NCBI GenBank assembly: GCA_030059675.1
Contig: JANVYQ010000004.1
Span: 1 to 64,000 of the forward strand
Direction of reading: 5' to 3'
Length of the DNA: 64,000 bases
Source of the DNA: Candidatus Pelearchaeum maunauluense
GTDB lineage: Archaea > Thermoproteota > Nitrososphaeria_A > Caldarchaeales > Caldarchaeaceae
The position numbers and the translations under genes were made by a program. Each line of letters opens with the position of its first letter. Position 1 is the first letter of the stretch. Under the pieces are notes generated by a model. It had not been told where the DNA came from, did not search any database, and saw nothing but the letters and a program-made list of their open reading frames with translations. Shown here one piece after another: positions 6,089-39,079 of the stretch.

Positions 6089-7492
6089 ATGGTCTCAGGT
6101 GATAGAATCTCTAGGAGGAAGGCTCTGAAGGCTATCAGCAACGTTGCTGCGGCTGGTGCGATAGTTGGGGCTGGTGTTGTAGGAGCGATTGGCGGTTTTA
6201 TGGCTGGCTCAACGACGGGAGGAGCGCAGCAAACAGTAACCGAGACACGCACACGCGAGGTTACGAAAACAGTTACGGCAACCAAGACGGTTACGGCAGG
6301 CGCCCCCACTGGTGGAAACCCGATAAAGATTGGATTTGAGGTTCACCGCACAGGTATAGGAGCTGTTTATGGCAAGTGGTATGAACGCACCACGGTAGCC
6401 GCGGTTAATCTCATCAACGAGATGGGCGGGATTGATGGCAGGCCCATAGAGCTGGTAATAGAGGACGATGGCACAGACCCGCAGCGTGGTGCGCAGGTGG
6501 TTGAGAAGTTCGCCCTTGAGCATAAGGTTGATTTTATACTGGGCGCCCTCTTCTCCAACGTAGTCCTTGCAGCAGCCCCCCGTGCAGGTGAGCTGAAGAT
6601 ACCATACTTCGCCGTGAGCGAGGGCTACCACGTGCCCTCAGGAAAGCTCAACAGATACAGCTTCCAGCCAGGGATAACCGACGTCAGGTCGCAGACGCAG
6701 GCTGTAGCTGGGTGGATTGTGGAGAACCTGGGAAAGAAGATAACCATGGTATTCCCAGACTACGCTTTCGGCTACGACCACCGCGACTGGTTTGGGAAGG
6801 CTGCCAGAGACCTGGGTGGTGAGATACTTGAGCTAATCCCGATACCCCCGACTGAGACGACATTCACCAAATACTTCCCTAAAGTCCCAGCGGATACTGA
6901 GGTCCTCTACCACGTCATGGTTGGGCCCGCGGTGCTCACGTTTGTTAAGGAGATGGGCGAGTTCTTCGGCTCTAAGAGGCCTGAGATATTTGGCTTTATA
7001 GACTCGCTGGAGGGCGTGGCGATAGACAGCCCTGGCCTGGAGTTCCTTGAGGGCACCTACTTCTGGGAGGCGTTTCCACGATACTTAGATGGATACGACA
7101 CGCCCTACCACAGGTTCTTCCGCGAGAAAGTGGGCGTTGATGAGAATGGTGCAGACGTGAACGACCCCAAGAGCGTCGCTACATACTCGCATATGTTCAG
7201 CTGTTGGGAGACGCTCTTCATCATAAAGGAGACTGTTGAGCAGAGCGGCTACACGCGGCGTAGCCCAGAGGATTATCGCGCCTTCATAGAGACGTTGGAG
7301 AACTTCAGGTGGTTTAACGAGGGTAACCAGCATCCGCAGGGTGCTAAGCTCTTCAACGGCAGGCTACACCAGGGCTTCGGGCAGCAGTTCATCTCGCGTG
7401 TGGAGAACGGAAGACTCAAGACGGTCTACCGCACAAAGATAGAGGACTCGGTATACGAGTCCGATGTTGATTATACCAAGCAACCGCTCTAG
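6089..7492 (+). CDS. ABC transporter substrate-binding protein (branched-chain/PBP1 family), Tat signal
   Basis: ISRRKALK twin-arginine motif, Thr/Val linker, PIKIG...INEMGGIDGRPIELVIEDD. Confidence 0.9.
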   Translation: MVSGDRISRRKALKAISNVAAAGAIVGAGVVGAIGGFMAGSTTGGAQQTVTETRTREVTKTVTATKTVTAGAPTGGNPIKIGFEVHRTGIGAVYGKWYERTTVAAVNLINEMGGIDGRPIELVIEDDGTDPQRGAQVVEKFALEHKVDFILGALFSNVVLAAAPRAGELKIPYFAVSEGYHVPSGKLNRYSFQPGITDVRSQTQAVAGWIVENLGKKITMVFPDYAFGYDHRDWFGKAARDLGGEILELIPIPPTETTFTKYFPKVPADTEVLYHVMVGPAVLTFVKEMGEFFGSKRPEIFGFIDSLEGVAIDSPGLEFLEGTYFWEAFPRYLDGYDTPYHRFFREKVGVDENGADVNDPKSVATYSHMFSCWETLFIIKETVEQSGYTRRSPEDYRAFIETLENFRWFNEGNQHPQGAKLFNGRLHQGFGQQFISRVENGRLKTVYRTKIEDSVYESDVDYTKQPL

Positions 7493-7585
7493 CAGCGTAT
7501 ATTTCTTTTATTTTTTGGAAGGAGGCTGTGGCTGGGCTTAGCGTTATATCACCGTCTCTAATCTCTCCAGAGCAGAGTTGATGGT

Positions 7586-8449
7586 ATGAGTCTGGAGGTT
7601 ACGCTGTTTCTGGGGTTGTTGGATGGCGTCGTCTTCGGGCTTATAATGGCGCTCATAGCCCTCGGCCTCTCAATAGCTTTTGGTGTTATGCGGATAGTGA
7701 ATGTGGCGCATGGTGAGTTCTATATGCTCGGAGCGGTTATAGCGTGGTACGCCACGACATACCTGGGAAACTTCATACTAGGTCTGATAATAGCGCCAGC
7801 CGCTGTAATAGGCCTAGCAGCAATAGTTGAGAGGACTGTCCTGAGGAAGATAAACTATAACCCAGAGAGCACGATAGTAGCTACCATCGGCCTGCTATAC
7901 ATAATACAGCAGCTCGTTCTCGCGATATATGGTCCATACGCCTATAATGTTGAGCCGCCCTTCTACCTCAGGGTTGATTTCCCCTGGTTTGGCTATTCTG
8001 GGTATAAGCTCTCCATAGCTTTTGTGTCGCCGCTCATAATGGGCTTGACCGCACTGTTCATCTTCAAGACGCGGCTGGGGCTGTATATGCGCGCTACGCA
8101 GCAGGATAGGGAGATAGCACAGGCCTTCGGCGTCCCCGTTGGCCGCGTCTACATGGCGTCATTCGCCCTAGGAGCGGCGCTGGCTGCGATAGCAGGCGTG
8201 CTGGTGGTCCCGTTCCTCCAGGCATACTACTTAATGGGGCTTGAGGCGCTCCTAATCTCGTTCATGATAGTAATCATAGGCGGCCTGGGGAGCTTGAAGG
8301 GTACGCTGGTTGCGGCGCTCATCATAGGCGTTATAGACGGCGTTGTCTCGGTCTTCTTCTCGCCCACGCTGGCGAAGATCGTCGGCTCCGTCCTCGTTGC
8401 GGCCGTGCTGCTGGTAAGGCCGACAGGCCTCTTCGGGGCTGAGCGCTGA
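7586..8449 (+). CDS. ABC permease, LivH-like
   Basis: GLSIAFGVMRIVNVAHGEFYMLG and IIGGLGS motifs. Confidence 0.92.
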   Translation: MSLEVTLFLGLLDGVVFGLIMALIALGLSIAFGVMRIVNVAHGEFYMLGAVIAWYATTYLGNFILGLIIAPAAVIGLAAIVERTVLRKINYNPESTIVATIGLLYIIQQLVLAIYGPYAYNVEPPFYLRVDFPWFGYSGYKLSIAFVSPLIMGLTALFIFKTRLGLYMRATQQDREIAQAFGVPVGRVYMASFALGAALAAIAGVLVVPFLQAYYLMGLEALLISFMIVIIGGLGSLKGTLVAALIIGVIDGVVSVFFSPTLAKIVGSVLVAAVLLVRPTGLFGAER

Positions 8450-9417
8450 TGTATGTTGCAAACAAGGGATTGGGGAAGGCTCTCGCGCTCCACATAGGAG
8501 TAATAGCTGGGTTCTTCATACTACAGTTCATAGTGCCACCATTCCATGCAGCGATGCTCACTAGGATAATGGTGTTGGCGACGTATGCGATAGGCTATAA
8601 CATCCTGCTGGGCTATACGGGCTTGATGAGCCTAGGCCATGCTATGTTCTTCGCAACAGGCTTGTATGCCGCTGGCCTCTCGGTAATCTACTACGGCCTA
8701 CCCCCGCTGGAGGCTCTCCCCCTCGCAATACTCCTGAGCGCCGTCATGTCTGCTACGATGGGAGCCATAACCCTCAGAACCAGCGGCGTCTTCTTCCTAA
8801 TAGTCACCATGATATTCTCACAGGTCTTCTTCCTAACAACACTATACTTCAACATGATTACGGGAGGTGAGGAGGGGCTGGTATTGACCCGTTATCTCAA
8901 GCCAATCTCGCTGGGTCTGTTCAGCGTGGAGCTTACCGATAGTGTTGTCAAGTATAACTTCGCCCTGATAATATTTTCTATCGCTTTTCTCTTCAGTCTT
9001 TGGCTGACGCGCTCACCTGTTGGGCGTGTCTTGATAGCGATTAGGGAGAACGATGAGCGCGCGGAGATGCTGGGCTACAACATCTACAAGTATAAGCTCC
9101 TAGCATTCACCATGTCGGGGACAATCTCTGGGATGGCAGGCGCAGCTTATGCGCTGGTCTTCGCATACATCGGCTCAGCGCTGGCCTCAATACTATACTC
9201 CATCAACCCCCTACTCTGGACACTGCTGGGAGGCGCTGGAACTACGATAGGCCCAATAATCGGGACAGGTCTGATGATATACATAATAGACTTCACCAGC
9301 GGCATAACGAGCAGCTACCTCATCGTAGTCGGGATAACGCTCATGTTGCTTGTCTTGGCTTTCCCGCCTGGGATTGTTGGAGCTATTAAGAGGAGGTGGA
9401 TTCGTTGGCTTCCGTAG
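8449..9417 (+). CDS. ABC permease, LivM-like
   Basis: GYTGLMSLGHAMFF, AIRENDERAEMLG and LLGGAGT motifs. Confidence 0.92.
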   Translation: MYVANKGLGKALALHIGVIAGFFILQFIVPPFHAAMLTRIMVLATYAIGYNILLGYTGLMSLGHAMFFATGLYAAGLSVIYYGLPPLEALPLAILLSAVMSATMGAITLRTSGVFFLIVTMIFSQVFFLTTLYFNMITGGEEGLVLTRYLKPISLGLFSVELTDSVVKYNFALIIFSIAFLFSLWLTRSPVGRVLIAIRENDERAEMLGYNIYKYKLLAFTMSGTISGMAGAAYALVFAYIGSALASILYSINPLLWTLLGGAGTTIGPIIGTGLMIYIIDFTSGITSSYLIVVGITLMLLVLAFPPGIVGAIKRRWIRWLP

Positions 9418-10154
9418 GTAATGTGATACTTGAGACGCGGGCTTTGACAAAGCGCTTCGGCGGGCTTGAGGCTATCAGGTCTGTTGATTTCAAGCTTGAA
9501 CGCGGCGAGCTTAGGGCGATAATAGGACCAAACGGAGCTGGTAAGACAACCTTCGTCAGCATGATAAGCGGCAGGATAAGACCATCGTCGGGGAGAATAT
9601 TCTTTGAGGGCCGCGACATAACTAAGATGAAGGCACATGATAGGGCTGGTATGGGGATAGTCTATACCTTCCAGATAATCAATATCTTCAGAAATCTACC
9701 GGTTTATGAGAATGTTAGCCTGGCTGTCCAGCGTAGGCTGGCAGGCGGCGGGGCTGGGATATTCAGGGTTGATGAGGAAGAACTACACCGCGAAGTTGAT
9801 GCTATCCTTGAGCGTATAGGGCTGCGGGACGTGGCCGAGCAGGAGGCAGGCTCACTACCCTATGGCCATCAGCGTCTCCTAGACATAGGACTCGCGCTAG
9901 CGTTGAACCCAAAGCTCCTCATACTAGACGAGCCCACGCAGGGACTTGCGATAAACGAGATAGACGAGGTCATGAGGATGATACGCGAGCTCCACCGCGA
10001 GAGGACTATAATGCTGATAGAGCATAACATGCAGGTCGTCCTGGAGCTGGCCAAGAAGATAACAGTAATGGATAAGGGCACCATAATAGCTGAGGGAACG
10101 CCTGAAGAGATAGAGGGGAATATTGAGGTTCAAAAGGTGTATCTTGGTCTATGA
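9396..10154 (+). CDS. ABC ATP-binding protein, LivG-like
   Basis: GPNGAGKT, LPYGHQR, LDEP, IEHNM. Confidence 0.93.
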   Translation: MDSLASVGNVILETRALTKRFGGLEAIRSVDFKLERGELRAIIGPNGAGKTTFVSMISGRIRPSSGRIFFEGRDITKMKAHDRAGMGIVYTFQIINIFRNLPVYENVSLAVQRRLAGGGAGIFRVDEEELHREVDAILERIGLRDVAEQEAGSLPYGHQRLLDIGLALALNPKLLILDEPTQGLAINEIDEVMRMIRELHRERTIMLIEHNMQVVLELAKKITVMDKGTIIAEGTPEEIEGNIEVQKVYLGL

Positions 10155-10855
10155 CTCTTACAGTTAGCGGGATAAACTGCTACTATGGTAAGGCTCATGT
10201 GCTTAAGGATGTTTCTCTAAGCCTCTCCGCTGGTGAGGTTCTCTGCCTGTTGGGGAGGAACGGCGCTGGGAAGACGACAACACTCAAAGCGATTATGGGC
10301 TTGGTCAGGCCCAAGACGGGAAGTATAAAGATTGATGGAAAGGAGCTTACGGGCGTCCCGCCTCACATGATACCGCGCCTAGGCGTGGCGTATGTACCAC
10401 AGGGGAGGAGGCTTTTCCCAAGCTTCACAGTAGAGGAGAACCTTAGGATGGGGCTCTTGGTGAGCGGGGGCGACGAGCAGACCTATGAGCAGGTGCTCCA
10501 GCTCTTCCCAGTCCTACGCGAGAGGCTCAGACAACGCGCTGGAACACTTAGCGGAGGCGAGCAGCAGATGCTAGCGATAGCGCGAGCCCTATGCTGTAAG
10601 CCGAAGTACCTACTCCTAGACGAGCCTCTGGAGGGGCTTATGCCAGCGCTGGTCGCGAAGCTCCTAGAGACCATCAGGGGGCTGAAGAGCCTCGGCATAG
10701 GGATACTGCTGGTTGAGCAGAGGATAGACGCGGCATTCAAGGTGGCTGACAGGATAGCGTTGATGGAGAACGGCCAGATAAAACACGAGACAACACCAGA
10801 CCAGCTATCAAACAACACCGAGATACTCTACAGATACCTCGGAGTCAGGAGATAA
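10151..10855 (+). CDS. ABC ATP-binding protein, LivF-like
   Basis: GRNGAGKT, LSGGEQQMLAIAR, LDEP, LVEQ. Confidence 0.93.
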   Translation: MTLTVSGINCYYGKAHVLKDVSLSLSAGEVLCLLGRNGAGKTTTLKAIMGLVRPKTGSIKIDGKELTGVPPHMIPRLGVAYVPQGRRLFPSFTVEENLRMGLLVSGGDEQTYEQVLQLFPVLRERLRQRAGTLSGGEQQMLAIARALCCKPKYLLLDEPLEGLMPALVAKLLETIRGLKSLGIGILLVEQRIDAAFKVADRIALMENGQIKHETTPDQLSNNTEILYRYLGVRR

Positions 10856-10903
10856 GTGTAGAATCATTTATAACTAGCGGAGAAGCGCATAAGGCTTGCA
10901 AAT

Positions 10904-13267
10904 ATGTGCGCTAACTTGCTGGGAAAGCCTGTAAGACGGCTTGAGGATAGACGCCTCCTGGTGGGAGAGGCTAGATTCATAGAAGACATAAACATCCCCC
11001 GCGCGCTCCACTGCATATTCCTCAGGAGCCCAGTCCCACATGCTAGGATAAGGAGGATAAACGCGGAGAAAGCGCTGAGAAATCCGCGCATACACGCGGT
11101 AATAGATGGGGAGATGGTAGCCTCGCGGGCTAGGCCGCTCTACACGCTCATAGACAAAACACGCTACTATGGGATAGCCGTTGGCAAGGCCAGATACGTC
11201 GGCGAGCCCCTAGCTATGATACTCGCAGAAACACGCGAAGACGCGCTGGACGCGGCTGAGGAGATTGAGATAGACTACGAGCCGCTACCGCCGCTCACAG
11301 ACCCAGAGGAGGCGCTCAGGAATAACGAAGTCCTGCTTCACGAGGAGCTGGGCTCAAACATCGCTGTAAGCAAGAAGCTAACATACGGCGATGTTGATGA
11401 CGCCTTCGCCGAGGCTGACGAGACTATTCACAGTAAGCTATACTTTGATAGGTATGCTGCAGCCCCTATAGAGTGTTGCGGCGTGTTGGTGGATTATTCA
11501 CCAAACGACGATAGCCTAACAATCTATGACAACCAGCAGACACCATTGCTCTTCCACGGAATTATAGCAGACGCGCTGGGGGTGGCGAGCAATAAGCTAC
11601 GCTTCATAGAGCCTGAGATAGGCGGCGGCTTTGGGGTGAAGATAATGCTCTATCCCTACGTCTTTCTCCTCGCTTTCGCGGCGCGGGAGCTTAGAAGGCC
11701 AGTGAGGTGGATTGAGACGCGGAGAGAGCACCTAGCAGCTATGGCGCACAGCTCCAACAGAGTGTTTGACGCCGAGATGGCGCTGAGACGCGACGGGGAA
11801 ATCCTAGCCCTCAGAACAAAGATGATAGAAGACTGCGGCGCATACGTTAGGCTGCCAGACCCAGGGGGTATAATACGCTCACTCATGACCTACCTAGGCT
11901 GCTACCGCGTGAGAAACGTGGAAGTTGAGGCTCATGTTGTTATGACCAACAAATGCCCAACGGGGCCTGTAAGGGGATACGGCTGCCAACAGGCGTATTT
12001 CATGCTGGAGCGCATGATGGACATCGCTGCGCGGAAGCTGGGCATCCCGCCAACGGAGATTAGGCTCAGGAACTTCATCAAGAAAGAAGAACAACCATAC
12101 ACCACGCCGTTCGGCTGCATATACGATGGGGGAGACTACGCGGCAACGCTAAAACGTGCTCTAGAGCTCGCGGAGACGGAAAAGCTCAAACAAGAAAATA
12201 AAGACAAGCTCATAGGCGTTGGGATAGCCACGATAGTAGAGCCAGCGGTAACGAACCTAGCGCGCAACAAGCTCCTCAACCCTGCTCTCAAGACCTCAGG
12301 CTCAGGCGAGGGCGCCATAGTCAAGATGGACGACAACGGGTATGTCTACGCCTTCATAGCGTCTATCCCGCAGGGCCAGGGGCATGAGACTGTAGCTGCG
12401 CAGCTGGTGGCTGAGATGCTCGGCGTAGAGCCCAGCAGCGTTAGGGTCGTTAAGGGGGACAGCTCGGCAGTATATCACAGCCCGTACAGCGGGACGTGGG
12501 GGAGCAGGTTCAGCGTTATGACACTAGGAGCGCTCAAGATTGCCTGCGAGAGGCTGCGCGAGAAGATATTAGCAATAGCAGCCGCGCTGCTAGAGGCATC
12601 GCCTACAGACCTGGAGCTACACGATGGGCGTGTGCATGTAAAGGGCTCGGAGATAAGCATAACACTACGCGAGATAGCGCAGACAGCGTACCGCGATACG
12701 CTCAAGCTTAGGGGGAGGGTGGAGGAAGGCGGACTACAGGCACAAGCGTTCTACGACTACCCAACATTCACAGAGCCAGACGAGGAGGGCAGGCTCAACA
12801 TGTCCGCAACATACGGAAACTCCGCCCACGTAGCGGTTGTTGAGGTTGACCAAGAAACCTTCAAGGTGAATGTGCTCAGATACGTGGCCGTCCACGACTG
12901 CGGCCGCGTGCTAAACCCGCTGATAGTTGACGGCCAGATAGCGGGGGGAGTTGCGCAGGGACTAGGAGCAACACTCTACGAAACAATAAGATACGACGAG
13001 GATGGCCAGCTACTCACATCAACCCTAGCAGACTACCTCATCCCAACAGCCCTAGACACGCCAACCATCATAATAGACCACCTAGAAACACCCTCACCAT
13101 ACGCACCACTACAAGCAAAAGGAATGGGAGAAGGACCACTAATACCAGTAGCAGCAGCAATAGCCAACGCAGTAGAAGACGCACTACACCAAAAATACAA
13201 CATAACAATAACCCACTCATCAATAACCCCAGACTACCTATGGAAACTAGTAAAAACCCGAAAATAA
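10904..13267 (+). CDS. Xanthine dehydrogenase-family molybdenum hydroxylase, large (Moco-binding) subunit
   Basis: RLEDRRLL.G, IGGGFGVK, PVRGYG, PQGQGHET, HDCG..LNP.IVDGQIAGG and KGMGEG; lacks the CO dehydrogenase AYxCSFR loop. Confidence 0.92.
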   Translation: MCANLLGKPVRRLEDRRLLVGEARFIEDINIPRALHCIFLRSPVPHARIRRINAEKALRNPRIHAVIDGEMVASRARPLYTLIDKTRYYGIAVGKARYVGEPLAMILAETREDALDAAEEIEIDYEPLPPLTDPEEALRNNEVLLHEELGSNIAVSKKLTYGDVDDAFAEADETIHSKLYFDRYAAAPIECCGVLVDYSPNDDSLTIYDNQQTPLLFHGIIADALGVASNKLRFIEPEIGGGFGVKIMLYPYVFLLAFAARELRRPVRWIETRREHLAAMAHSSNRVFDAEMALRRDGEILALRTKMIEDCGAYVRLPDPGGIIRSLMTYLGCYRVRNVEVEAHVVMTNKCPTGPVRGYGCQQAYFMLERMMDIAARKLGIPPTEIRLRNFIKKEEQPYTTPFGCIYDGGDYAATLKRALELAETEKLKQENKDKLIGVGIATIVEPAVTNLARNKLLNPALKTSGSGEGAIVKMDDNGYVYAFIASIPQGQGHETVAAQLVAEMLGVEPSSVRVVKGDSSAVYHSPYSGTWGSRFSVMTLGALKIACERLREKILAIAAALLEASPTDLELHDGRVHVKGSEISITLREIAQTAYRDTLKLRGRVEEGGLQAQAFYDYPTFTEPDEEGRLNMSATYGNSAHVAVVEVDQETFKVNVLRYVAVHDCGRVLNPLIVDGQIAGGVAQGLGATLYETIRYDEDGQLLTSTLADYLIPTALDTPTIIIDHLETPSPYAPLQAKGMGEGPLIPVAAAIANAVEDALHQKYNITITHSSITPDYLWKLVKTRK

Positions 13268-13369
13268 CCCCCTTGATAGTCTTGTTGGAAATTCAATCCT
13301 CATAGTTTCCTCCTATAAATATGCCGCCGCTAAAAGTGTTAATAATCACCTGTATTAATGATTCTCACC

Positions 13370-14554
13370 ATGCCGCGAATATTGATTAAGAATATCGGCT
13401 GTATCGTTGGTGGTGATGTGGGCAGGCCTTTGCTGGATGGTGATTCCCTAGTTATACGCGATGGTGTTGTGGAGCGTATAGGCTCTGGCCTGGGTGGTGA
13501 TGTCGATGGCGTTATTGACGTGCAGGGGATGACCGTCATACCAGGGCTCTTTGACTCGCATGTTCATCCAGTCTTCGGTGACTACACACCCCGTCAGAAC
13601 ACTCTCGGCTTTATCGAGGCAAGCGTCCATGGTGGGGTTACGTCGTTCATCTCGGCTGGTGAGGTTCATCTTCCTGGAAGGCCGCGTGGGGATAAGGACG
13701 CCGCTATGGCTCTCGCGATACTTGCCCACAAGGCGTTTAGGAGCGTCAGGCCCCTAGGAGCGAAGGTTCACGCTGGGGCGCTCATCTTGGAGAAGGGGAT
13801 GACGGAAGAGGACTTCAGATACGTCTCTGAGAGAGGGGTATGGCTCGTCGGCGAGGTTGGCCTGGGCTCGGTTCAAGACCCAGATGAGGCGGCGCAGATG
13901 GTTGAGATGGCGCATAAGTATGGGATGAAGGTAGTAATCCATACTGGGGGAGCCTCAATACCTGGAAGCACGATAGTTAATGCAGATGTTGTGCTCAAGG
14001 TTAAGCCTGACGTGGTTTCGCATATCAACGGCGGGCCAACCGCGCCCACGGTTAGGGATATTGAGAAGATAATTGAGGGAACCAACGCGGCTATTGAGGT
14101 TGTCCAGTGCGGCAACTTCAGAGCTATGTTGGAGACTGTTAAGTTTCTGAAGAAGCGGGGGGAGCTTCATAGATTGATAATAGGCAACGACGCGCCCTCT
14201 GGGAGTGGTGTAATCCCGCTGGGGATACTTAGAACGATTCACACAATATCAAGCCTGGGCGGGGTTAAGCCAGAGCTGGCAATATGCGCCGCGAGCGGGA
14301 ATACCGCGCGCGTCTTCGGCCGTAGTGAGGGAGTGCTTGAGGAGGGCAGGCCAGCGGACTTGGTGGTAATAGACGCTCCATACGGCTCTGCGGCGCGCGA
14401 TGCTCTAGAGGCACTAGCCATCGGCGACATACCAGGCGTTGCTATGGTGATGATTGACGGCCAGCCGCGGGTCGGGAGGAGTAGGATGACGCCGCCACCA
14501 AACAGGCAGGTCAAGACCGAGGGAGAAGTTCATCTACCCAATGGAGGTCATTAA
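13370..14554 (+). CDS. ena: Enamidase-like amidohydrolase
   Basis: DSHVH..GDY.PRQ, HGGVT..ISAG, ILEKG, GEVGLG, HTGG.SIPGS, SHINGGPTA, GNDAPSG and SR.TPP match, as I recall them, the enamidase of nicotinate fermentation along its length. Confidence 0.85.
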   Translation: MPRILIKNIGCIVGGDVGRPLLDGDSLVIRDGVVERIGSGLGGDVDGVIDVQGMTVIPGLFDSHVHPVFGDYTPRQNTLGFIEASVHGGVTSFISAGEVHLPGRPRGDKDAAMALAILAHKAFRSVRPLGAKVHAGALILEKGMTEEDFRYVSERGVWLVGEVGLGSVQDPDEAAQMVEMAHKYGMKVVIHTGGASIPGSTIVNADVVLKVKPDVVSHINGGPTAPTVRDIEKIIEGTNAAIEVVQCGNFRAMLETVKFLKKRGELHRLIIGNDAPSGSGVIPLGILRTIHTISSLGGVKPELAICAASGNTARVFGRSEGVLEEGRPADLVVIDAPYGSAARDALEALAIGDIPGVAMVMIDGQPRVGRSRMTPPPNRQVKTEGEVHLPNGGH

Positions 14555-14559
14555 CTAGC

Positions 14560-15546
14560 ATGAAGCTTGGGCTACGTCTCCCCACATTCGCCTTAGATGG
14601 GGACTTCTCCTCCTATGATGTTCTCAGAAACTATGTCCAGAGAGCCGAGGAGTGTGGCGTGGAGGGATTCTTCGTCATAGACCACCTCCTCATAACGCCT
14701 CCCGCATATGCTTGTAGCTGGCACGACGCCCTGACAGCCGTCTCATTCATAGCCGCTGCGACAAAACATGCCCGCGTAGGCACTATGGTCCTCGTACTTC
14801 CTACCAGAAACCCATACTTCCTAGCCAAGCAGCTCGCGAGCATAGATGTCTATTCAGGGGGGAGGCTCGTCCTAGGCGCTGGCGTTGGCTGGAATGTACG
14901 CGAGTTTGAGCTGGCGGGAGTTCCAGTCAGTAAGCGCGGCAGGATAATGGACGAGTATCTGGTTCTCCTCAAGATGCTGTGGAGCGCGTGCAAGACGAGC
15001 TTTGACGGCGAGTTCTTCAGGGTTCGGGAGCTGGAGATGCTTCCAAAACCCGTGCAGAAACCCCATCCACCTATATGGATAGGTGGGGGTAGCCAGCCTT
15101 TTGAGAAGATATACGGAGAGCAGGCACGCGGGATAGAGCGCGTCCTAGCCAGAGTCGCCAAGCACGCAGACGGCTGGATACCCCACTCAAGCGCAACAGC
15201 GGAAATGGCCGCAAAAGACTGGGAGACCGTGAAGAGCTACGCCAGAGAATACGGTAGAGACCCATACAACATAACCCGCATATACTCCAACTTCATCTAC
15301 ATAAAACAGCCTGGAGAGCCCGACGCTGAGGCTGCCAAGCGCTTCAGCCTATACTCAGGGATGGACCTGGACTACTGGCGCGAATACTATCTCCTAGGCA
15401 CGGTTGATGAGCTGGCCCGTAAGATAAGGGCGCGCATAAACGCTCTTGAGGGCGTGGATTGGGTTGTTCTGAACCCTCTAACGTTTGGGGAGAGCCAGCT
15501 CAGGCTAATAGCTGACGAGCTCTTCCCCAAGATAGAGAAGCAATAG
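14560..15546 (+). CDS. LLM-class (luciferase-like, possibly F420-dependent) oxidoreductase
   Basis: DHL, LAKQLASID..SGGRLVLGAGVGW...EF and PKPVQKPHPPIWIGG. Confidence 0.88.
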   Translation: MKLGLRLPTFALDGDFSSYDVLRNYVQRAEECGVEGFFVIDHLLITPPAYACSWHDALTAVSFIAAATKHARVGTMVLVLPTRNPYFLAKQLASIDVYSGGRLVLGAGVGWNVREFELAGVPVSKRGRIMDEYLVLLKMLWSACKTSFDGEFFRVRELEMLPKPVQKPHPPIWIGGGSQPFEKIYGEQARGIERVLARVAKHADGWIPHSSATAEMAAKDWETVKSYAREYGRDPYNITRIYSNFIYIKQPGEPDAEAAKRFSLYSGMDLDYWREYYLLGTVDELARKIRARINALEGVDWVVLNPLTFGESQLRLIADELFPKIEKQ

Positions 15547-15553: not shown

Positions 15554-15979
15554 CTATTCTTCCACCCTTACATCCTCCTCAACGAAGCGCGGGCCTTCGC
15601 TTGCATCTTCGCGTCTCCATGAGCGGTACTCAACCACGCCGCCGCTGGATACCGAGACGATGAGGTAAGAGTACCAGGGGAAGGAGTGTTCTAGGTCGTA
15701 CTGGGATGGTCTTGCCGCGACGTTTGGATGCGAGTGGTAGGTGCCTACGACGCGGAGGCCACGCTCCTCCGCGCTCTTCTCCACACGATAATACTCCATA
15801 GGGTCAATCCTATACCTAACGCGCCTATCCCCCTCGTGCACGTTGCTAACACGGACAACATCAACAACCATGCGCTCGTCTTCATCCCTCCCCAGCATGA
15901 GGCCGCAGCACTCGTATGGGTAAGACTCAACGCAGTGGTCTAGGATTTTCTTCATGGCTGCGCCGCTCACAACCAGCAT
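15554..15979 (-). CDS. JAMM/MPN+ (M67) metallopeptidase, Mec/CysO-Cys peptidase-like
   Basis: YPYECCG and YHSHP..ARPS..D catalytic motif; directly downstream of cysteine synthase. Confidence 0.9.
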   Translation of the reverse strand: MLVVSGAAMKKILDHCVESYPYECCGLMLGRDEDERMVVDVVRVSNVHEGDRRVRYRIDPMEYYRVEKSAEERGLRVVGTYHSHPNVAARPSQYDLEHSFPWYSYLIVSVSSGGVVEYRSWRREDASEGPRFVEEDVRVEE

Positions 15980-27914: not shown

Positions 27915-29342
27915 ATGATAGGTAATAAGAAAACCGCACTGACAAGGTTGGAAGCCGTTCTCGCAGTTCTCTTCATAGTCGCCCTGATAGCCGCTGGCGC
28001 GGGGTGGGTCAGGCCCGTCGAGATGGGCGTCACAACCGTAACAAAGACGGTGGGAGAGGGGCAGGCTGCTACGGTCACCGTCACAGAGACCCAGCAGATA
28101 ACCGTAACTGAGACGGTTGTGAAACAGCCTGAGGCGCCGCGGAAGATCAAGATAGGCTTACTGACACACCAAACGGGGCCTGAAGCGCCTATAGGGCAGG
28201 ATATGGAGCGGGCATTCCTGCTTGCTGTTGAGGAGATAAACACGCGCGGCGGAGTCTATGTAGAGGAGTTCGGGACAAAGCTCTTGCTGGAGCCTGTTAT
28301 TGAGGACCAGCAGAGTAGCAGGGAAGGGACTGTGGCCGCTGCGGAGAGGCTGGTCAACGTCGACAAGGTTGATATAATCGTAGGCGGCTTCGGCAGCGCC
28401 TTCATACCAGGCGCCCAGCCAATAATCGCAGAGGCAGGAACACCATACATAATCACAGGAGTATCCACGCCGATAGTAGTAACCCGAACAGACATAGACA
28501 CCAGTTGGTTTGTCCTCTACCAGGCCATAGCGCCTGAGCATGGCCAGTCAATCTCGCTCATCCTGGCTGAGGCCGTAAAGCCCGTTGTGGCTCCAGATAG
28601 AAACCTAAAGGTTGCTGTTCTCTACCAGGACTCGCCCTTCGGTGAGGGATTCTTCGCTGGCATGAAGCTAATAATAGAGGAGAAGAACCTGCCTATTGAC
28701 TTGGTCTTCGTGGATAAGTTCAAGGTTAGGGAGACAGACTTCAGAGCTCTACTAACAGCGGCTGCGGCGGCTAACCCAGATGTGATAGTCCCAATAGGGT
28801 TCATAGGCGAGACCATCGCGGTCATCCAGCAGGGAGTAAGAGACCTGGGCATAAAGAAGCTCTACGGCCCAGTCTGCGTCTGTGTTGAGAGCCCAACATA
28901 CTATAAAGACCTCGGCCGTGAGGGAGAGTTCTCACTAATCCAGACATACTTCGGGCCGTATCACGTCCATCCGCGTGTTGCTGAGAAGGTCGCGGAGTTT
29001 AGTAAGAAGTTTGAGGAGAAGTGGGGTGTTAGGCCGGGCTCTCAGGGGCTCAGCGTGTATGACGCCGTGTATATAGCGGTGAAGGCGATTGAGGAGGCTG
29101 GCACGCTGGATAAGGCTAAGGTAGCCGAAGCGCTGAGGAACCTCGTCATGGGTGAGCTTCTGCTACCCGTGCCTGGTGGTGTCATAAAATTCAAGCCAAC
29201 AGGACACCAGACGTTTGAGCTCTATGGAGTACAGCTAATCTGGGACGAGAACGTCCAAGAGCTGCGGCCAGTAATCGTCTGGCCTAAGGAGATTGCCGAA
29301 GCCGAGGTAAGGCTTCCTTCAGGCTTCCAGCCTGGAGGCTAG
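27915..29342 (+). CDS. ABC transporter substrate-binding protein (branched-chain/aromatic acid family)
   Basis: N-terminal anchor, Thr/Val linker, KIKIGLL...TG, AVEEIN..GG and YDAVYI...AIE.AG. Confidence 0.9.
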   Translation: MIGNKKTALTRLEAVLAVLFIVALIAAGAGWVRPVEMGVTTVTKTVGEGQAATVTVTETQQITVTETVVKQPEAPRKIKIGLLTHQTGPEAPIGQDMERAFLLAVEEINTRGGVYVEEFGTKLLLEPVIEDQQSSREGTVAAAERLVNVDKVDIIVGGFGSAFIPGAQPIIAEAGTPYIITGVSTPIVVTRTDIDTSWFVLYQAIAPEHGQSISLILAEAVKPVVAPDRNLKVAVLYQDSPFGEGFFAGMKLIIEEKNLPIDLVFVDKFKVRETDFRALLTAAAAANPDVIVPIGFIGETIAVIQQGVRDLGIKKLYGPVCVCVESPTYYKDLGREGEFSLIQTYFGPYHVHPRVAEKVAEFSKKFEEKWGVRPGSQGLSVYDAVYIAVKAIEEAGTLDKAKVAEALRNLVMGELLLPVPGGVIKFKPTGHQTFELYGVQLIWDENVQELRPVIVWPKEIAEAEVRLPSGFQPGG

Positions 29343-29414
29343 AAACACACCATATAATAACACACTATTATTTTTATTTCCGCCAAGAATATAAAGCGGG
29401 TCTGGGTGCCATGA

Positions 29415-30305
29415 ATGGTTCTTGACGCTACAACCATAACCAGAATAATATTCTGGGGGCTGGTGGCGGGTAGCATATACACGCTCCTCGCCACAGGGCT
29501 CAACATAATATTCGGAGTTATGAAGGTCGTAAACTTCGCACATGGCGAGGTTATGATACTAGGCTCGTATGTTACGTTCTATCTCTGGAGCATGGCTCAG
29601 CTCAATCCGTATATGGTGATACCTGTAGCCATGCTCGTCGTCGCTGGGCTTGGCATGCTAATAGAGAGGCTCAGCTTTAGGCCGATAAAGGGGACGAGCA
29701 AGATAAACGAGATATTCCTAAGCTTGGCGCTCATACTCATCCTACAAAACGCGATGGCGGTGGTCGCGGTAGCAAATCTACGCGAGCTCAAGCCAGTGCT
29801 AATCAGCAGCCCATTCCGCCTAGAGAGCATACCACTAGGCCCCGTTAGCCTTCCCAACGACTTCGCGGTCATACTCTCAGTAACAGCACTAGTGCTTGTT
29901 GGTCTCCTCCTAGTTTTACGTAGAACGGGGTTTGGGAGACGTCTCAGGGCTGTGAGCCAGAATAGGACAGCGGCCGCCCTGATGGGCGTTGATGTGGAGA
30001 GGATGGATATGATTAGCTTTGGGATAGGCTCAGCCTTAGCTGCACTCGCGGGCGCTTTCCTCGCGATACTCGCGCCCTTTGACCCGTATTCTGGCACGTT
30101 CCCAGCAATCAAGGCGTTTGCGGTGATAATCCTCGGTGGTCTGGGGAGCATATCTGGCGCTGTGGTGGCCGGGTTCATACTCGGCCTCTCAGAGTCGGCC
30201 GCAGCATTCCTGCTGGGCGGCGTGTGGAAGGATGCCATAGCATTCGCGTTCCTTACAGCGATACTCGTGGTGAGGCCTGAGGGCATATTCGGGGAACGTG
30301 GATGA
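29415..30305 (+). CDS. ABC permease, LivH-like
   Basis: GLNIIFGVMKVVNFAHGE and ILGGLGS. Confidence 0.92.
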   Translation: MVLDATTITRIIFWGLVAGSIYTLLATGLNIIFGVMKVVNFAHGEVMILGSYVTFYLWSMAQLNPYMVIPVAMLVVAGLGMLIERLSFRPIKGTSKINEIFLSLALILILQNAMAVVAVANLRELKPVLISSPFRLESIPLGPVSLPNDFAVILSVTALVLVGLLLVLRRTGFGRRLRAVSQNRTAAALMGVDVERMDMISFGIGSALAALAGAFLAILAPFDPYSGTFPAIKAFAVIILGGLGSISGAVVAGFILGLSESAAAFLLGGVWKDAIAFAFLTAILVVRPEGIFGERG

Positions 30306-31276
30306 AGAAGGGCTTCATCGCTGGAATCATACTACTGGCCACCGCCTCAGCGGTGCCGATGATAACACAAGAGCCATACATCCTCCAAACACTCTCCATA
30401 GCATACGTCTTCGCCATCTACTCAATAGGCTGGAACATCCTTGCCCTCTCTGGCCAGGTCTCCCTAGGACACGCGGCATTCTTCGGCATAGGAGCGTATA
30501 GCTCGGTCATCTTGGCGAGGGCTTACGGCCTGCCCCCAGCGATAACAGTGGTTGTAGGCCCGCTCTTCACAGCGTTGGTGGGGCTTGGCATAGGCCTGCT
30601 ATGCGTAAGGCTGAAAGAATGGTTCCTCGCGATGGTTACGTTTGGGTTTGCTGTGATAATGCAGGCTATCGTGGTTGATGACCAGCTCCGCTGGCTCACT
30701 AACGGGTGGGATGGTCTTCTGGCCCCTCATCTTATTCCCCCAGAGTTTGAGCCCCGGCGTGTATGGAATTACTACGCCCTCCTAGCGGCTACCGTCATAA
30801 CGTATATCGCCAGCTACCTCATCTTCAACTCGCGGCTGGGGCTGGCTTTCAAGACGATAAGGGATAACGAACTAGTAGCGCGGGTATGTGGTGTCAAGAC
30901 CATGCGCTACAAGCTACTATCCTTCGTCATAAGCACATACATAGCAGGCGTAGCGGGAGCGTTGCAGTATCATGTCCTCTTCAGATTCCTCTCACCAGAG
31001 GTCTTCCACCTCCAGACATCATTCTGGCCCCTCATCTTCACAGTAGGCGGCGGGCTTGGGACGCTTGAAGGACCGTTGATAGGCTCTATAATCCTCTGGT
31101 TAGCCTGGGAGGCGTTCAGAGCTATAGCAGGGTTCTACGGCCTGATAGGGCTAGGCATCTTCCTCGCGCTTGTCATAATACTCATGCCAGGCGGTATAAG
31201 GTCGCTGATAGCTAAAGCGCCGTCGCTAATCTATGGGTTTGGGGAAAGGAGGAAAGTCATATCCCAAGGTATGTAG
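30302..31276 (+). CDS. ABC permease, LivM-like
   Basis: GQVSLGHAAFFGIGAY, IRDNE and GGLGT. Confidence 0.92.
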   Translation: MKKGFIAGIILLATASAVPMITQEPYILQTLSIAYVFAIYSIGWNILALSGQVSLGHAAFFGIGAYSSVILARAYGLPPAITVVVGPLFTALVGLGIGLLCVRLKEWFLAMVTFGFAVIMQAIVVDDQLRWLTNGWDGLLAPHLIPPEFEPRRVWNYYALLAATVITYIASYLIFNSRLGLAFKTIRDNELVARVCGVKTMRYKLLSFVISTYIAGVAGALQYHVLFRFLSPEVFHLQTSFWPLIFTVGGGLGTLEGPLIGSIILWLAWEAFRAIAGFYGLIGLGIFLALVIILMPGGIRSLIAKAPSLIYGFGERRKVISQGM

Positions 31277-31973
31277 CCCTTATCCGCTCATCAGCCATAA
31301 GCTCCTCCCGCCTTCCCTCTGCTGCTATCCTACCAGTCTCCAGCAGGTAAGCCCTATCCGAGACCTCAAGCGCCATCAGCGCGTTCTGCTCCACCAGTAG
31401 CATGGTGAGCTCCTCCTCGCGAAGCTGCTCCAAAACCCTGAATATCCGCGCAACTATGTTGGGAGCCAACCCCGTTGACGGCTCGTCAAGCACCAGGAGG
31501 CGGGGCTTTGACATCAACGCCCTACCTATGGCGAGCATCTGCCGCTGCCCGCCGCTCAGAGTACCCGCCTGCTGGTTCTTCCTCTCCTTCAGTATGGGAA
31601 ACAGGCTGTAAACCTCCTCCAATACCTGCTGCACGTCATAGTTCTTTGGAAGCAGATCAGCACCCATCATGAGGTTCTCGTAGACCGTCATGTGGGGGAA
31701 TAGCTCTCTCCCTTCTGGGACGCTTGATATTCCGAGACGCGCAACCTTATGCGGTGGCAGGCCGTTTATCCTCTTTCCATCAAATACAATATCACCTGAG
31801 GCTGGCTTGACCAGGCCCGTTATAGCCTTGAGTGTGGTTGTTTTTCCCGCTCCGTTGGGGCCTAGGAGCGAGACTATCTCGCCGCGCCTAACTTCTAGCG
31901 AGATTCCCCACAGCACGCGAACCTTCCCATACCCAGCGTGAAGCTCCCTGACTTGGAGCATAACTCGCCACAC
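31257..31973 (-). CDS. ABC ATP-binding protein, LivF-like
   Basis: GPNGAGKT, LSGGQRQMLAIGRALM, LDEPS and VEQN. Confidence 0.93.
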   Translation of the reverse strand: MWRVMLQVRELHAGYGKVRVLWGISLEVRRGEIVSLLGPNGAGKTTTLKAITGLVKPASGDIVFDGKRINGLPPHKVARLGISSVPEGRELFPHMTVYENLMMGADLLPKNYDVQQVLEEVYSLFPILKERKNQQAGTLSGGQRQMLAIGRALMSKPRLLVLDEPSTGLAPNIVARIFRVLEQLREEELTMLLVEQNALMALEVSDRAYLLETGRIAAEGRREELMADERIRATYLGI

Positions 31974-31976
31974 CTC

Positions 31977-32711
31977 TCAACTATATTTCTCGCCAAGATA
32001 AGCCCTAACCACAGCCTCCATGCGCGTTATCTCCTCAGGCCTCCCCTCTGCTATCTTCTCCCCAAAATGAAGCACAACAACCCGCTCACACAGGTTCATG
32101 ACTATCCGCATGTTATGCTCTATGAGCATTATCGTCATCCCGCTCTCCCTTATACGCCTAACCAGGCTTATCGCCTCGTTTATCTGCGCCACGTTTAGGC
32201 CGGTGAATATCTCGTCCAGCAGTAGTAGCGCTGGCCTTGTGGCGAGGGCGCGGGCCAGCTCTAGGCGCTTCAGCTCGACAATCGTCAAGTCCTTGGCTGG
32301 CGTGTTCCTCTTCCCAGATAGGCCGACATACTCTATAATCTCATCTACCCTCCTATCAACCTCCCCAGAGCTGTTCTTCCTCCCAACCTTCCCAAAGATA
32401 TAACCAGCCTTCACATGCTCCCTCACGGTGAGTGTTGGAAACGACTGGGCTATCTGGAAAGTCCTCCCAACACCAAGCCTGCAAATATCCTCAGGCGACT
32501 TACGCGTTATGTCATGACCCTTGAATAATATCCTACCATCCTCCGGCTTATACACGCCGGAGATTACGTTGATGAGCGTCGTCTTTCCAGAGCCGTTGGG
32601 GCCTATTAGGCCGACTATCTCCCCTTGGGATATCTCCAAATCCACGTTCTTGAGAGCAACTATACCGCCAAACCTTTTGGTGATATTCTCAACTTTTAGC
32701 AACGTGTTCAA
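31977..32711 (-). CDS. ABC ATP-binding protein, LivG-like
   Basis: GPNGSGKT, RTFQ, LDE, IEHNM and AYLG. Confidence 0.93.
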   Translation of the reverse strand: MNTLLKVENITKRFGGIVALKNVDLEISQGEIVGLIGPNGSGKTTLINVISGVYKPEDGRILFKGHDITRKSPEDICRLGVGRTFQIAQSFPTLTVREHVKAGYIFGKVGRKNSSGEVDRRVDEIIEYVGLSGKRNTPAKDLTIVELKRLELARALATRPALLLLDEIFTGLNVAQINEAISLVRRIRESGMTIMLIEHNMRIVMNLCERVVVLHFGEKIAEGRPEEITRMEAVVRAYLGEKYS

Positions 32712-32766
32712 GCGTTACGCCTCCTCTAGTTGTTGCCTGTTCGGCGTTGTCTTTTGTTCTAGTATG

Positions 32767-32946
32767 CTATAAGCTATACCCAGCCTCGCTCCGCTTGAGG
32801 CTCTCCAAGAGCGTCTGGGCGTGGCTCATCATGTGCCGCGCTGTTCTCTCCACACCATAGTTCCCAGACTTCCCAGCCTCATCGGCCAGCTCTTTTAGGG
32901 CGGTATAGACCTGCTCAACCTTCCTAAGCATCTCGTCATTACCCAT
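32767..32946 (-). CDS. 59-aa helical hypothetical protein (not in the ORF track)
   Basis: MGNDEMLRKVEQVYTALKELADEAGKSGNYGVERTARHMMSHAQTLLESLKRSEAGYSL; ATG immediately follows the paaK stop, with GGAG upstream. Confidence 0.65.
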   Translation of the reverse strand: MGNDEMLRKVEQVYTALKELADEAGKSGNYGVERTARHMMSHAQTLLESLKRSEAGYSL

Positions 32947-32947
32947 C

Positions 32948-34231
32948 TTAACTCCCCTCCTTGATTATGATTCTCCTGCTCTTCCCCTCGTAGCGCGGCA
33001 AGCTCCCTTCGGGGACGAACTCCACATGCGGTGTGACGAACATGAGGCCGCGCTTAAGCTCTGCTGATATCTTCTCGCGTAGCTCTGGCGTGTCGCGCTG
33101 CTGCTCCAGCTCCACCTTAATCCAGATACCGCCGCCAATAAGGGACTTATCAACAACCACTTGATACTCCATCACCTCGGGGAACTTGAAGAGAGCCTCC
33201 TGTATCGTGCTGGGCCATATCTTAGCCCCGCGGTAGTGTATGACGTCATCAACCCTTCCGCGAATCCACTTACAGCGCGGGAATGCGTCGCGCCCACACT
33301 CGCAGCCGCTATCGTCAATAAGCGTTATGTCGCGCATCCTATACCTGACCAAAGGCATGGCCTCCTTCGTCAAGGTCGTTACAACCATCTCGCCCTCCTC
33401 ACCTGGTGGTACTGGCTCCAGCGTCTCTGGGTCTATTATCTCCAGGTAGATGTGGTCTATCCAGAAGTGGAAGCCTTGCTCATACTCGCACTCTATCCCA
33501 GAGCCTGGGCCCAGCAGCTCTGTAGCCCCGAAGACGTTCCTAGCTCCCCCGCTCTTCTCCTTCAACGCGAAGCCCTCCTCAAGACGCCTGCGTGCCTCCT
33601 CTGTCCACATCTCGGCGCCTGGTATGGTTATTCTGAGCGAGGTCTTCTCAGGGTCTATGCCGCGTTTTCGGAGGGTCTCAAGTATGTAGAGCTGGTATGA
33701 TGGTGTTCCAGTCATGACGGTGGGCTTGAAGTCCCTTATGATGTCTATCATCGCTTCTGTCCTGCCTACGCCCCATGGTATTACGGTGGCGCCAACCATG
33801 TGCGAGGGCTGGTGGAAGCCCAAACCACCCGTGAAGAGCCCATAGCCGTAGATGTTTAGCATGATATCGCCCTTCCTCACGCCGCATGTAACGAGTGAGC
33901 GCGCCATCAAGTTAACCCATGTCTCGTGGTCCTTGTAGGTGTATGGCCCAACCGTAGGCTTTCCAGTCGTTCCAGACGTCATATGCCAGCAGATTAGCTC
34001 CTCGCGGGGCACGCAGAGGAAATCACCGCCATACGGGTAGCTATAAACCCGCAGGTCATCCTTTGTCGTGAAGGGGAATTTGCGTATATCCTCCAGCTTC
34101 TTCAAGTCATCTGGATTAACCCCAGCCTCGTCAAACCGCTTATGATAGAACCTACTGCGCTCATACACGTAACGAAGTATGAACTTGAGACGCTTCAACT
34201 GAAGCTCCTGCAGCTCGGAGCGCTTCATCAA
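32948..34231 (-). CDS. paaK: Phenylacetate-CoA ligase family protein
   Basis: PFTTKDDLR, TSGTTGKPT, YGLFTGGLG, EAMPLVRYR..D and GRVDD. Confidence 0.9.
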   Translation of the reverse strand: MMKRSELQELQLKRLKFILRYVYERSRFYHKRFDEAGVNPDDLKKLEDIRKFPFTTKDDLRVYSYPYGGDFLCVPREELICWHMTSGTTGKPTVGPYTYKDHETWVNLMARSLVTCGVRKGDIMLNIYGYGLFTGGLGFHQPSHMVGATVIPWGVGRTEAMIDIIRDFKPTVMTGTPSYQLYILETLRKRGIDPEKTSLRITIPGAEMWTEEARRRLEEGFALKEKSGGARNVFGATELLGPGSGIECEYEQGFHFWIDHIYLEIIDPETLEPVPPGEEGEMVVTTLTKEAMPLVRYRMRDITLIDDSGCECGRDAFPRCKWIRGRVDDVIHYRGAKIWPSTIQEALFKFPEVMEYQVVVDKSLIGGGIWIKVELEQQRDTPELREKISAELKRGLMFVTPHVEFVPEGSLPRYEGKSRRIIIKEGS

Positions 34232-37560: not shown

Positions 37561-37571
37561 GTGAGTAAAAT

Positions 37572-38800: not shown

Positions 38801-38839
38801 GACTAGATTAGACTCTGAAAGTTTGAGCGCTTATTAAAG

Positions 38840-39030
38840 TTAGGGCCGCGAGACTATACTGGCGAGCTCATCCTCCCTCCCAGTCTCGTATCTACTCAAC
38901 TCTAGTAGCTTCTCTATCCTTAGGGAGACGTTAGCGCGGATAAGCTCGTCTATCAACTCTGAAAATGATTTTCCATTCTTCAGCTGCTCAAGCTTGGCGT
39001 AAACCCCTCGGATATTGTGAGAGTTTTATG
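38840..39030 (-). pseudogene. VapB-type antitoxin remnant (frameshifted, no start codon, no toxin)
   Basis: KTLTISE, then after a frameshift VYAKLEQLKNGKSFSELIDELI, the archaeal VapB/UPF0330 pattern. Confidence 0.7.
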
Positions 39031-39079
39031 CTAAATGTAAAAATATTGTGTTATTTTTTGGCCATTTTGGTGTGCTGGG

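Follow-up and report, generated by a model that had tools for sequence, protein, structure and literature searches.

Nicotinate fermentation in Eubacterium barkeri reportedly depends on a gene cluster that Alhapel et al. are said to have described in 2006, with the genes for Ndh, Hnr, Ena, Hgd, Hmd, Mgm, Mii, Dmd, and Dml; the ring is hydroxylated by a Mo enzyme, reduced by the ferredoxin-dependent 6-hydroxynicotinate reductase (Hnr), and opened by an enamidase. We write THON for tetrahydro-6-oxonicotinate (1,4,5,6-tetrahydro-6-oxonicotinate). A proteobacterial cluster is found in Azorhizobium caulinodans, Bradyrhizobium japonicum, Rhodopseudomonas palustris, and strain SG-6C; as described in PMC3511419, it leads through THON to glutarate and has a transporter of the same family as the importer studied here. 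Here we compare these systems with a cluster of eight genes in the first 64,000 nucleotides (the window) of contig JANVYQ010000004.1 of the hot-spring archaeon Candidatus Pelearchaeum maunauluense. The cluster (Table 1) encodes an ABC importer of the branched-chain-type HAAT family, a Mo-hydroxylase large subunit (Mo subunit), an enamidase orthologue, and a luciferase-like (LLM) oxidoreductase.

Among known systems, the nicotinate cluster of the proteobacterial (Azorhizobium) type comes closest, rather than the one used for fermentation in E. barkeri. On a modest balance of probability, the archaeal cluster would be a version of the bacterial nicotinate route via 6-hydroxynicotinate and THON, with the LLM as a substitute for Hnr. 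A THON-type nicotinate route is likely, and the LLM as ring reductase is the best but unproven explanation. The literature searched, supplements excepted, contained no archaeal nicotinate route and no F420-dependent 6-hydroxynicotinate reductase; the main text of the Caldarchaeales papers PMC10547907 and PMC6053391 does not mention nicotin* or enamidase, and their supplements may list annotations. The initial annotation, made from the sequence alone, had named no characterised archaeal example. Homologues are present in the databases, some of them labelled "enamidase," without a pathway reading in the literature searched.

Enamidase, its conserved neighbours, and Hnr/LLM exclusivity

By its sequence, the hydrolase is an enamidase orthologue. 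It matched the E. barkeri enamidase (EC 3.5.2.18, PDB 2VUN; Table 1) over residues 6–386 of 398, and the next PDB match had an E value of 1e-8. Residues H68, H70, H222, and D278 were invariant among 22 homologues, E166 and H195 were at least 90% conserved, and the same residues aligned with 2VUN; we take this set (HxH, a bridging carboxylate, two His, and an Asp) to be the metal ligands of the amidohydrolase superfamily. The full-length match and the retained metal-ligand positions bear out the name "enamidase-like" given in the initial annotation. The protein was 56% identical to the enamidase of L019, a bacterial Hnr-type locus in a metagenome-assembled genome of Pseudomonadota, and bacterial cluster enamidases were 54–68% identical to the L019 enamidase.

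At least 8,000 database proteins matched the hydrolase at E ≤1e-20; among the matches listed, the named ones were mostly bacterial, and an archaeal group was 70–80% identical. In a phylogeny, as the initial annotation had suggested, the LLM-adjoining enamidases fell in one clade (22 rows plus the window, SH-aLRT 100; quick tree search, 99 rows). A plasmid search gave 25 enamidase matches at 47–49% identity, one of them in a named bacterial Hnr-type cluster, and no LLM match at E 1e-40. On the Rhodococcus qingshengii plasmid NZ_AP023173.1 (L159), an enamidase homologue (48%) stands beside only an IclR regulator and an MFS transporter, and no Mo enzyme, Hnr, or LLM was found within 9 kb of it. 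This context indicates that the enamidase family also occurs outside nicotinate-type clusters.

An enamidase match (E ≤1e-30) was present in 16 of the 76 genomes of the class. Without the window's own genome, the matches fell in 14 of 17 genomes of its family and in 1/19, 0/4, and 0/35 genomes of three other families. In a sample of the phylum, 17 of 401 genomes had the enamidase (E ≤1e-60), 16 of them Caldarchaeales. A scan of genome contigs with a single enamidase sequence gave three loci. Fourteen of the 15 primary archaeal loci were fetched, and a partial match at a contig end in G015 was excluded. The genes for the Mo subunit, enamidase, and LLM were contiguous and co-oriented in all 14 Caldarchaeales loci fetched, and because it recurs in this way the arrangement is not due to chance. 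Identities to the window's proteins were 58%–63% for the Mo subunit, 70%–74% for the enamidase, and 63%–70% for the LLM, and 93%–96% in a genome of the same genus; the locus of a Candidatus Pelearchaeum sp. was 96% identical to the window's cluster. Genes for HAAT ATPases adjoined the trio in 11 of the 14 loci, and in the other three the contigs end there. No other conserved redox gene was found in the archaeal loci.

A second enamidase-like gene (38–40% identity) was found in six relatives and is not present in the window's genome. Four of the six second loci were fetched (L057–L060, from G013, G012, G004, and G011); all had ABC ATPases and another Mo large subunit (32–37% identity), and the one in G004 had an LLM match. 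These second loci look like a paralogous hydroxylate/reduce/hydrolyse cluster.

Metagenome contigs were scanned with an enamidase alignment, the best 80 of 552 confirmed loci were kept (L074–L153), and their neighbours were tallied by tblastn (E ≤1e-15, more than half of the query covered). Among these best 80, an Hnr-like gene was present in 58 and an LLM gene in seven, and no locus had both. The gene following the enamidase, in the 69 loci with at least 1,200 bases beyond it, was Hnr-like in 52, LLM in seven, and DUF1185 in five, and matched no query in five. A UPF0280-like gene was found in 27 of the 58 Hnr loci versus none of the seven LLM loci. DUF1185 lay within 10 kb of the enamidase in 47 of the 80 loci, and an aldehyde dehydrogenase in 26. 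The position of the LLM in the place of Hnr, the enamidase orthologue, and an importer family common to the window's cluster and the bacterial nicotinate clusters agree with the hydroxylate-reduce-hydrolyse logic proposed in the initial annotation.

The gene order in L019 is aldehyde dehydrogenase, two HAAT permeases, two ATPases, 2Fe-2S subunit, FAD subunit, Mo subunit, enamidase, a 501-aa Hnr-like protein with an N-terminal 4Fe-4S domain, UPF0280-like protein, and DUF1185. The 501-aa protein was 45% identical over 461 residues to a RefSeq "6-hydroxynicotinate reductase" from a Sulfitobacter plasmid, where the cluster encodes UPF0280, two "amino acid synthesis family" proteins, Mo and M subunits, an enamidase homologue, and beta-oxidation-type proteins; 12 of the 120 homologues listed for it carry the JGI name 6-hydroxynicotinate reductase. 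The Hnr-like query had no match in the window's own genome, which is 94% complete, and the Hnr core was not found in the 18 genomes of the family, where the matches reached at most 25 bits and all fell in the ferredoxin part (residues 3–81). A protein encoded on contig C10 of the window's genome, beside an aldehyde dehydrogenase, is as long as bacterial Hnr (501 aa) and was considered as a candidate; it was rejected as a membrane protein that is not related to Hnr (BLASTP E 0.61) and matches no family.

The initial annotation had proposed searching the genome for downstream 2-formylglutarate enzymes, and two candidates were found on contig C10. The single DUF1185 gene (Pfam AA_synth; C10:41146–41682) adjoins a gene for an aldehyde dehydrogenase of the methylmalonate-semialdehyde dehydrogenase (MMSDH) type, with electron-transfer flavoprotein genes and FixC/X nearby. 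The two proteins were 73% and 66% identical, respectively, to the copies linked to the cluster in Caldarchaeum, where they follow the importer; both also flank the cluster in loci like that of the relative G014. DUF1185, at 60–73% identity, is held in common with the bacterial nicotinate clusters. For all eight cluster-linked aldehyde dehydrogenases scanned, archaeal and bacterial, the best model was TIGR01722 (CoA-acylating MMSDH), with scores of 385–475 bits against a cut-off of 448.5; two were above it, and the window genome's own copy scored 447.9. In PMC2954203, DUF1185 is given a chorismate-mutase-like fold, and its "amino acid" label derives from neighbouring ABC genes of the branched-chain amino acid type. 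We regard DUF1185 as a candidate for a step that processes 2-formylglutarate. Chemically, 2-formylglutarate can be regarded as malonate semialdehyde with a substituent at position 2, so that a natural guess for its fate is oxidative decarboxylation to glutaryl-CoA; this product would fit the glutarate route cited in PMC3511419.

Proposed substrate, ring reductase, and hydroxylase subunits

The Mo subunit has a hammerhead domain and two MoCo-binding domains (Pfam), and it retains the GGGFG motif and the catalytic Glu in KGMGEGP, which was placed by alignment with paralogues. Its active-site loop reads GPVRGYGCQQAY. We take CSFR (VAYRCSFR) to be the Cu-binding loop type of form I CO dehydrogenase (CODH) and AYRGAGR to be the other CODH-type loop. 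Neither type is present in the window's Mo subunit, and AYRGAGR occurs in two other large-subunit paralogues of the same genome. The NCBIfam CODH models scored far below their cut-offs (563 vs. 950, and 485 vs. 991 for TIGR02416). In a tree made with 41 of the 80 extracted rows, the Mo subunit grouped with the Caldarchaeales cluster orthologues (support 100) within a clade of archaeal paralogues (19 rows, support 100), and 16 bacterial cluster Mo subunits stood apart from it (support 99); the L019 row, on a very long branch, was disregarded. Identity to the L019 subunit was 31%. The Mo subunit is thus not orthologous to the bacterial hydroxylase, and substrate identity is not transferable from the bacterial enzyme. 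The initial annotation was right in placing it in the xanthine dehydrogenase family, and it is not the orthologue of the bacterial nicotinate dehydrogenase subunit, nor does it have its own Fe-S and FAD genes in the window.

An orphan CoxM and CoxS pair (FAD and 2Fe-2S subunits) without a large subunit lies at C9:120981–122391 (L068), next to MoeA, XdhC/CoxI, CoxD, and CoxE, and we infer that it serves the window's Mo subunit. For the Caldarchaeales, multiple copies of CoxL/M/S are reported and CO oxidation is discussed in PMC10547907. The window's genome has three more pairs of Mo large-subunit and LLM genes, at C3:16512–19833, C17:1388–4658, and C2:329881–333408 (L156–L158). Their partners are Cupin_7, DUF2848, and LUD-domain proteins at the C3 pair, an M20 amidohydrolase and a CoA-transferase at the C17 pair, and a SnoaL-like protein at the C2 pair; with the window's own pair, 4 of the 13 large subunits are paired with an LLM.

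The importer has the complete HAAT (Liv/Urt-type) build, with a Peripla_BP_6 substrate-binding protein (SBP), two BPD_transp_2 permeases, and two ATPases. The initial annotation had described a Tat SBP, and a Tat-like SRRKALK motif can be read at the N-terminus (MVSGDRISRRKALK); after it come a hydrophobic segment, as a membrane anchor, and a linker rich in Thr. TatC is encoded in the host genome. The urea and Liv equivalog models were all below their cut-offs for the importer genes in the NCBIfam scan, and the ligand was therefore left unassigned. G014 has an importer of the window's type upstream of the trio, with an SBP orthologue (76% identical) in the same position, and Caldarchaeum has a different HAAT set downstream of the trio.

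The same logic might operate on another substrate, that is, the Mo subunit would hydroxylate a different N-heterocycle, such as another pyridine or pyridone carboxylate, and the enamidase would open the matching lactam. We consider this rather unlikely. It would accord with a Mo subunit that belongs to an archaeal paralogue expansion and not to the bacterial nicotinate clade, with the separate clade of the LLM-linked enamidases, with the paralogous second cluster of some relatives (Mo subunit, enamidase-like protein, ABC ATPases, LLM), with the three further Mo-subunit/LLM pairs, and with the variation of importers between genera. However, the enamidase is about as close to the E. barkeri (1e-128) and Hnr-type (56%) enzymes as the bacterial ones are to each other, and DUF1185 and the MMSDH-type aldehyde dehydrogenase are common to the bacterial nicotinate clusters, which argues for the same ring-opened product.

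The LLM gene starts five bases after the stop of the enamidase gene, and its product scores above the threshold for TIGR03619 (Rv2161c; Table 1), a family predicted to depend on F420. Orthologues of this LLM in metagenome-assembled genomes of Caldarchaeum are named by NCBI as predicted F420-dependent LLM oxidoreductases. We know of no characterised member of TIGR03619 and of no pyridone-reducing activity assigned to the family. The enamidase-linked LLMs formed one clade (support 100/100 with 32 rows and 100/99 with 40 rows), and 10 LLM paralogues from the window's genome, which has 16 matches to the TIGR03619 model, fell outside it. The sister of this clade is a large set, 51–55% identical and represented in the tree by 20 proteins, few of which are named (Calidithermus, Binatia, Rokuibacteriota); no sister-clade LLM was found within 10 kb of the enamidase in the 73 other metagenome loci. 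Genes for F420 were found in the window's genome, with CofD (162 bits), CofE (252 bits), and Fno/NpdG (207 vs. 149.8 bits) all above their cut-offs, and CofE was present in 18 of 18 family genomes.

Could the LLM act elsewhere in the same pathway, with the same enamidase step, while another enzyme reduces 6-hydroxynicotinate? It might, for example, use F420 to interconvert 2-formylglutarate and 2-(hydroxymethyl)glutarate, as Hgd does in E. barkeri, or its substrate might be a different aldehyde or alcohol. Most of the F420-dependent LLMs known to be characterised convert alcohols to carbonyls or back, or else reduce imines; hydroxymycolic acid dehydrogenase and Mer are among the PDB matches of the window's LLM; and the genome is rich in other reductases, the TIGR03619 matches among them. 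Even so, we find this improbable, because LLM and Hnr are strictly exclusive in the 80 loci and occupy the same position after the enamidase, and no other redox gene is conserved in the archaeal loci. Moreover, three of the seven LLM loci retain DUF1185 and the MMSDH-type aldehyde dehydrogenase (the other four contigs are at most 13 kb long), as Hnr loci do, which indicates that the LLM does not replace those genes. It is highly improbable that the Mo subunit is just one of the several aerobic CoxL copies, next to a hydrolase and an LLM without pathway meaning, since in spite of the multiple copies reported and a CoxL as best PDB match, its loop is of neither the CSFR nor the AYRGAGR type, the CODH models fall far short of their cut-offs, and the trio is conserved in every locus fetched.

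For the archaeal nicotinate route, we infer the substrate, the cofactors, and the step of the LLM as follows. The membrane-anchored SBP and the ABC importer would take up nicotinate or 6-hydroxynicotinate. The Mo large subunit would hydroxylate C6, borrowing the orphan FAD and 2Fe-2S subunits encoded on another contig beside genes for cofactor maturation. The dedicated LLM, with F420H2 recharged from NADPH by Fno, would then give a hydride to C4 of the 2-pyridone; the C4=C5 bond would be reduced to yield THON, a step for which the bacterial counterpart is the unrelated Fe-S flavoprotein Hnr. The enamidase would open the THON ring to 2-formylglutarate and ammonia. Finally, the DUF1185 protein and the CoA-acylating MMSDH-type aldehyde dehydrogenase, whose genes belong to the cluster in sister genera but sit on a different contig in the window's genome, may convert 2-formylglutarate to glutaryl-CoA and CO2.

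Several observations weigh against this route. The Mo subunit sits in a separate archaeal paralogue clade and is only 31% identical to its bacterial counterpart. Neither a Fer2_2 nor a FAD_binding_5 gene was found within the window, so that the Fe-S and FAD subunits are unlinked to it. Large-subunit genes number 13 in the genome (one in two pieces), against only five Fe-S and five FAD subunit genes, which makes the pairing of subunits a guess. To our knowledge, no LLM reduces a pyridone C=C bond, and the best PDB matches of the LLM are a mix of FMN-dependent and F420-dependent enzymes. FO synthase was not found: for CofH, whose cut-off is 374 bits, the window's genome gave 20.7 bits, and CofG was present in 1 of the 18 family genomes, two of those without it being 99% complete. 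Either F420 would have to be built from salvaged FO, or the flavin used by the LLM is a different one. It is plausible that the LLM uses F420 with FO coming from outside; either FO would be salvaged or these genomes would have an FO synthase of a new type. Enamidase homologues about 48% identical occur in other contexts, and DUF1185 and the aldehyde dehydrogenase are unlinked to the cluster in the window's genome. Importers vary between genera (SBPs 26% identical), and the window's SBP resembles the SBP of a sole bacterial cluster, the Hnr-type locus L103, at 37% identity.

A wider proposal is more tentative. It holds both that the enamidase-linked LLMs are enzymes of a new kind, F420H2-dependent 6-hydroxynicotinate (2-pyridone) ring reductases that displace Hnr, and that they are part of a broader strategy of the Caldarchaeales, in which orphan Mo large subunits, hitherto taken for CO dehydrogenases, would share one Fe-S/FAD module and work in pairs with F420-type LLMs, so that N-heterocycles are first hydroxylated and then dearomatised; we regard the two together as possible. 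If the nicotinate route is true, archaea would gain their first proposed pathway for breaking down nicotinate (vitamin B3). A predicted F420 LLM family would receive a testable function, the conjugate reduction of a pyridone ring, for which a ferredoxin-dependent Fe-S flavoenzyme is otherwise used. Of the numerous "CoxL" genes read as CO dehydrogenases in the Caldarchaeales papers, one or more would be reassigned. DUF1185 and the MMSDH-type aldehyde dehydrogenase would be the missing steps from 2-formylglutarate to glutaryl-CoA in the Azorhizobium-type pathway, bacteria included.

Gene layout and other genes of the window

The listing of open reading frames (ORFs) gave all eight genes of the cluster on the + strand, with gaps of −22 to +94 bases, and the Pfam and NCBIfam scans matched the class of each (Table 1); the initial annotation had described eight co-oriented genes of these families. 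A longer SBP ORF is possible from a TTG at 6068. Among sequencing runs, none of RNA is listed for this stretch, and one of DNA contains a small share of it. The host genome (1.79 Mb) belongs to the Caldarchaeales ("Aigarchaeota"), and the window is archaeal by its other genes as well, which encode a tRNA-intron endonuclease, HTH_10, a desampylase-like JAB protein, and diphthamide synthase.

Table 1. The eight genes of the cluster, with their coordinates in the window
Gene product	Position	Strand	Family evidence
HAAT-family ABC importer substrate-binding protein (SBP)	6089–7492	+	Peripla_BP_6 3e-48
ABC permease, LivH/UrtB-like	7586–8449	+	BPD_transp_2 5e-35; UrtB model below its cut-off
ABC permease, LivM/UrtC-like	8449–9417	+	BPD_transp_2 3e-37
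ABC ATPase, LivG/UrtD-like	9396–10154	+	ABC_tran and BCA_ABC_TP_C
ABC ATPase, LivF/UrtE-like	10151–10855	+	ABC_tran 4e-37
Mo-hydroxylase large (MoCo) subunit, xanthine dehydrogenase/CoxL family	10904–13267	+	Ald_Xan_dh_C + MoCoBD_1 + MoCoBD_2
Enamidase orthologue	13358–14554	+	Amidohydro_1/3; PDB 2VUN E 1.2e-128
Luciferase-like (LLM) oxidoreductase	14560–15546	+	Bac_luciferase; TIGR03619 207 bits vs. cut-off 166.9

A RING-finger protein (zf-RING_2, 1e-10; 269–967) and the JAB/desampylase-like protease (15554–15979) share the window, a pair reminiscent of the ubiquitin-like modifier system that is reported from Caldiarchaeum. Another HAAT ABC importer, made up of a binding protein, two permeases, and two ATPases, lies on the opposite strand at 27915–34231 and adjoins a gene for an AMP-binding, phenylacetate-CoA-ligase-like protein, with thioesterase genes further on (37078–38000). 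An aerobic aromatic-acid catabolic cluster occupies both strands at 38018–44737 and encodes an acetoacetate-decarboxylase-like protein, an FAA-hydrolase family protein, an HpaB-type hydroxylase, an extradiol dioxygenase, a flavin reductase, and an aldehyde dehydrogenase. A CLC chloride-channel gene seems to be split into two ORFs (46325–46747 and 46845–47561, profile positions 1–59 and 114–345), which may reflect a frameshift, a pseudogene, or an assembly error.

Comparison with known systems

The closest PDB relatives of the Mo subunit are the large subunits of CODH and quinoline 2-oxidoreductase (E 1e-135 to 1e-124), with CoxL 8uem and quinoline 2-oxidoreductase 1t3q as the best matches and 1ffu also among them. 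The three-domain build and the catalytic Glu are common to these enzymes and the window's subunit. Unlike in both CODH types, its active-site loop is GPVRGYGCQQAY, and its gene stands without M and S genes inside a heterocycle-type cluster. The window's LLM differs from other TIGR03619 members in that it belongs to a dedicated clade tied to the enamidase.

The initial annotation had taken E. barkeri as its model. The order of hydroxylation, reduction, and hydrolysis is the same, and 2VUN is clearly homologous to the window's enamidase. The E. barkeri Mo subunit, by contrast, is split, and the 3HRD chains match the window's subunit at 3e-44 and 3e-34; its reductase is the ferredoxin-dependent Hnr, and its lower pathway is B12-dependent, whereas the downstream genes linked to the archaeal clusters point to glutaryl-CoA. 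The nearest model is of the Azorhizobium type, with glutarate or glutaryl-CoA as its product.

With the Azorhizobium-type cluster, the archaeal one shares the HAAT importer, a Mo-hydroxylase, DUF1185, the MMSDH-type aldehyde dehydrogenase, and an enamidase whose gene comes immediately behind that for the Mo large subunit. It differs in having an archaeal host, in lacking Hnr and the UPF0280-like gene, with an F420-class LLM in that place, and in lacking Fe-S and FAD genes, with a non-orthologous archaeal paralogue as its Mo large subunit. The cluster is thus at the level of sequence a mosaic, in which the enamidase, DUF1185, and the aldehyde dehydrogenase are held in common with bacteria and the hydroxylase subunit and the proposed reductase are not.

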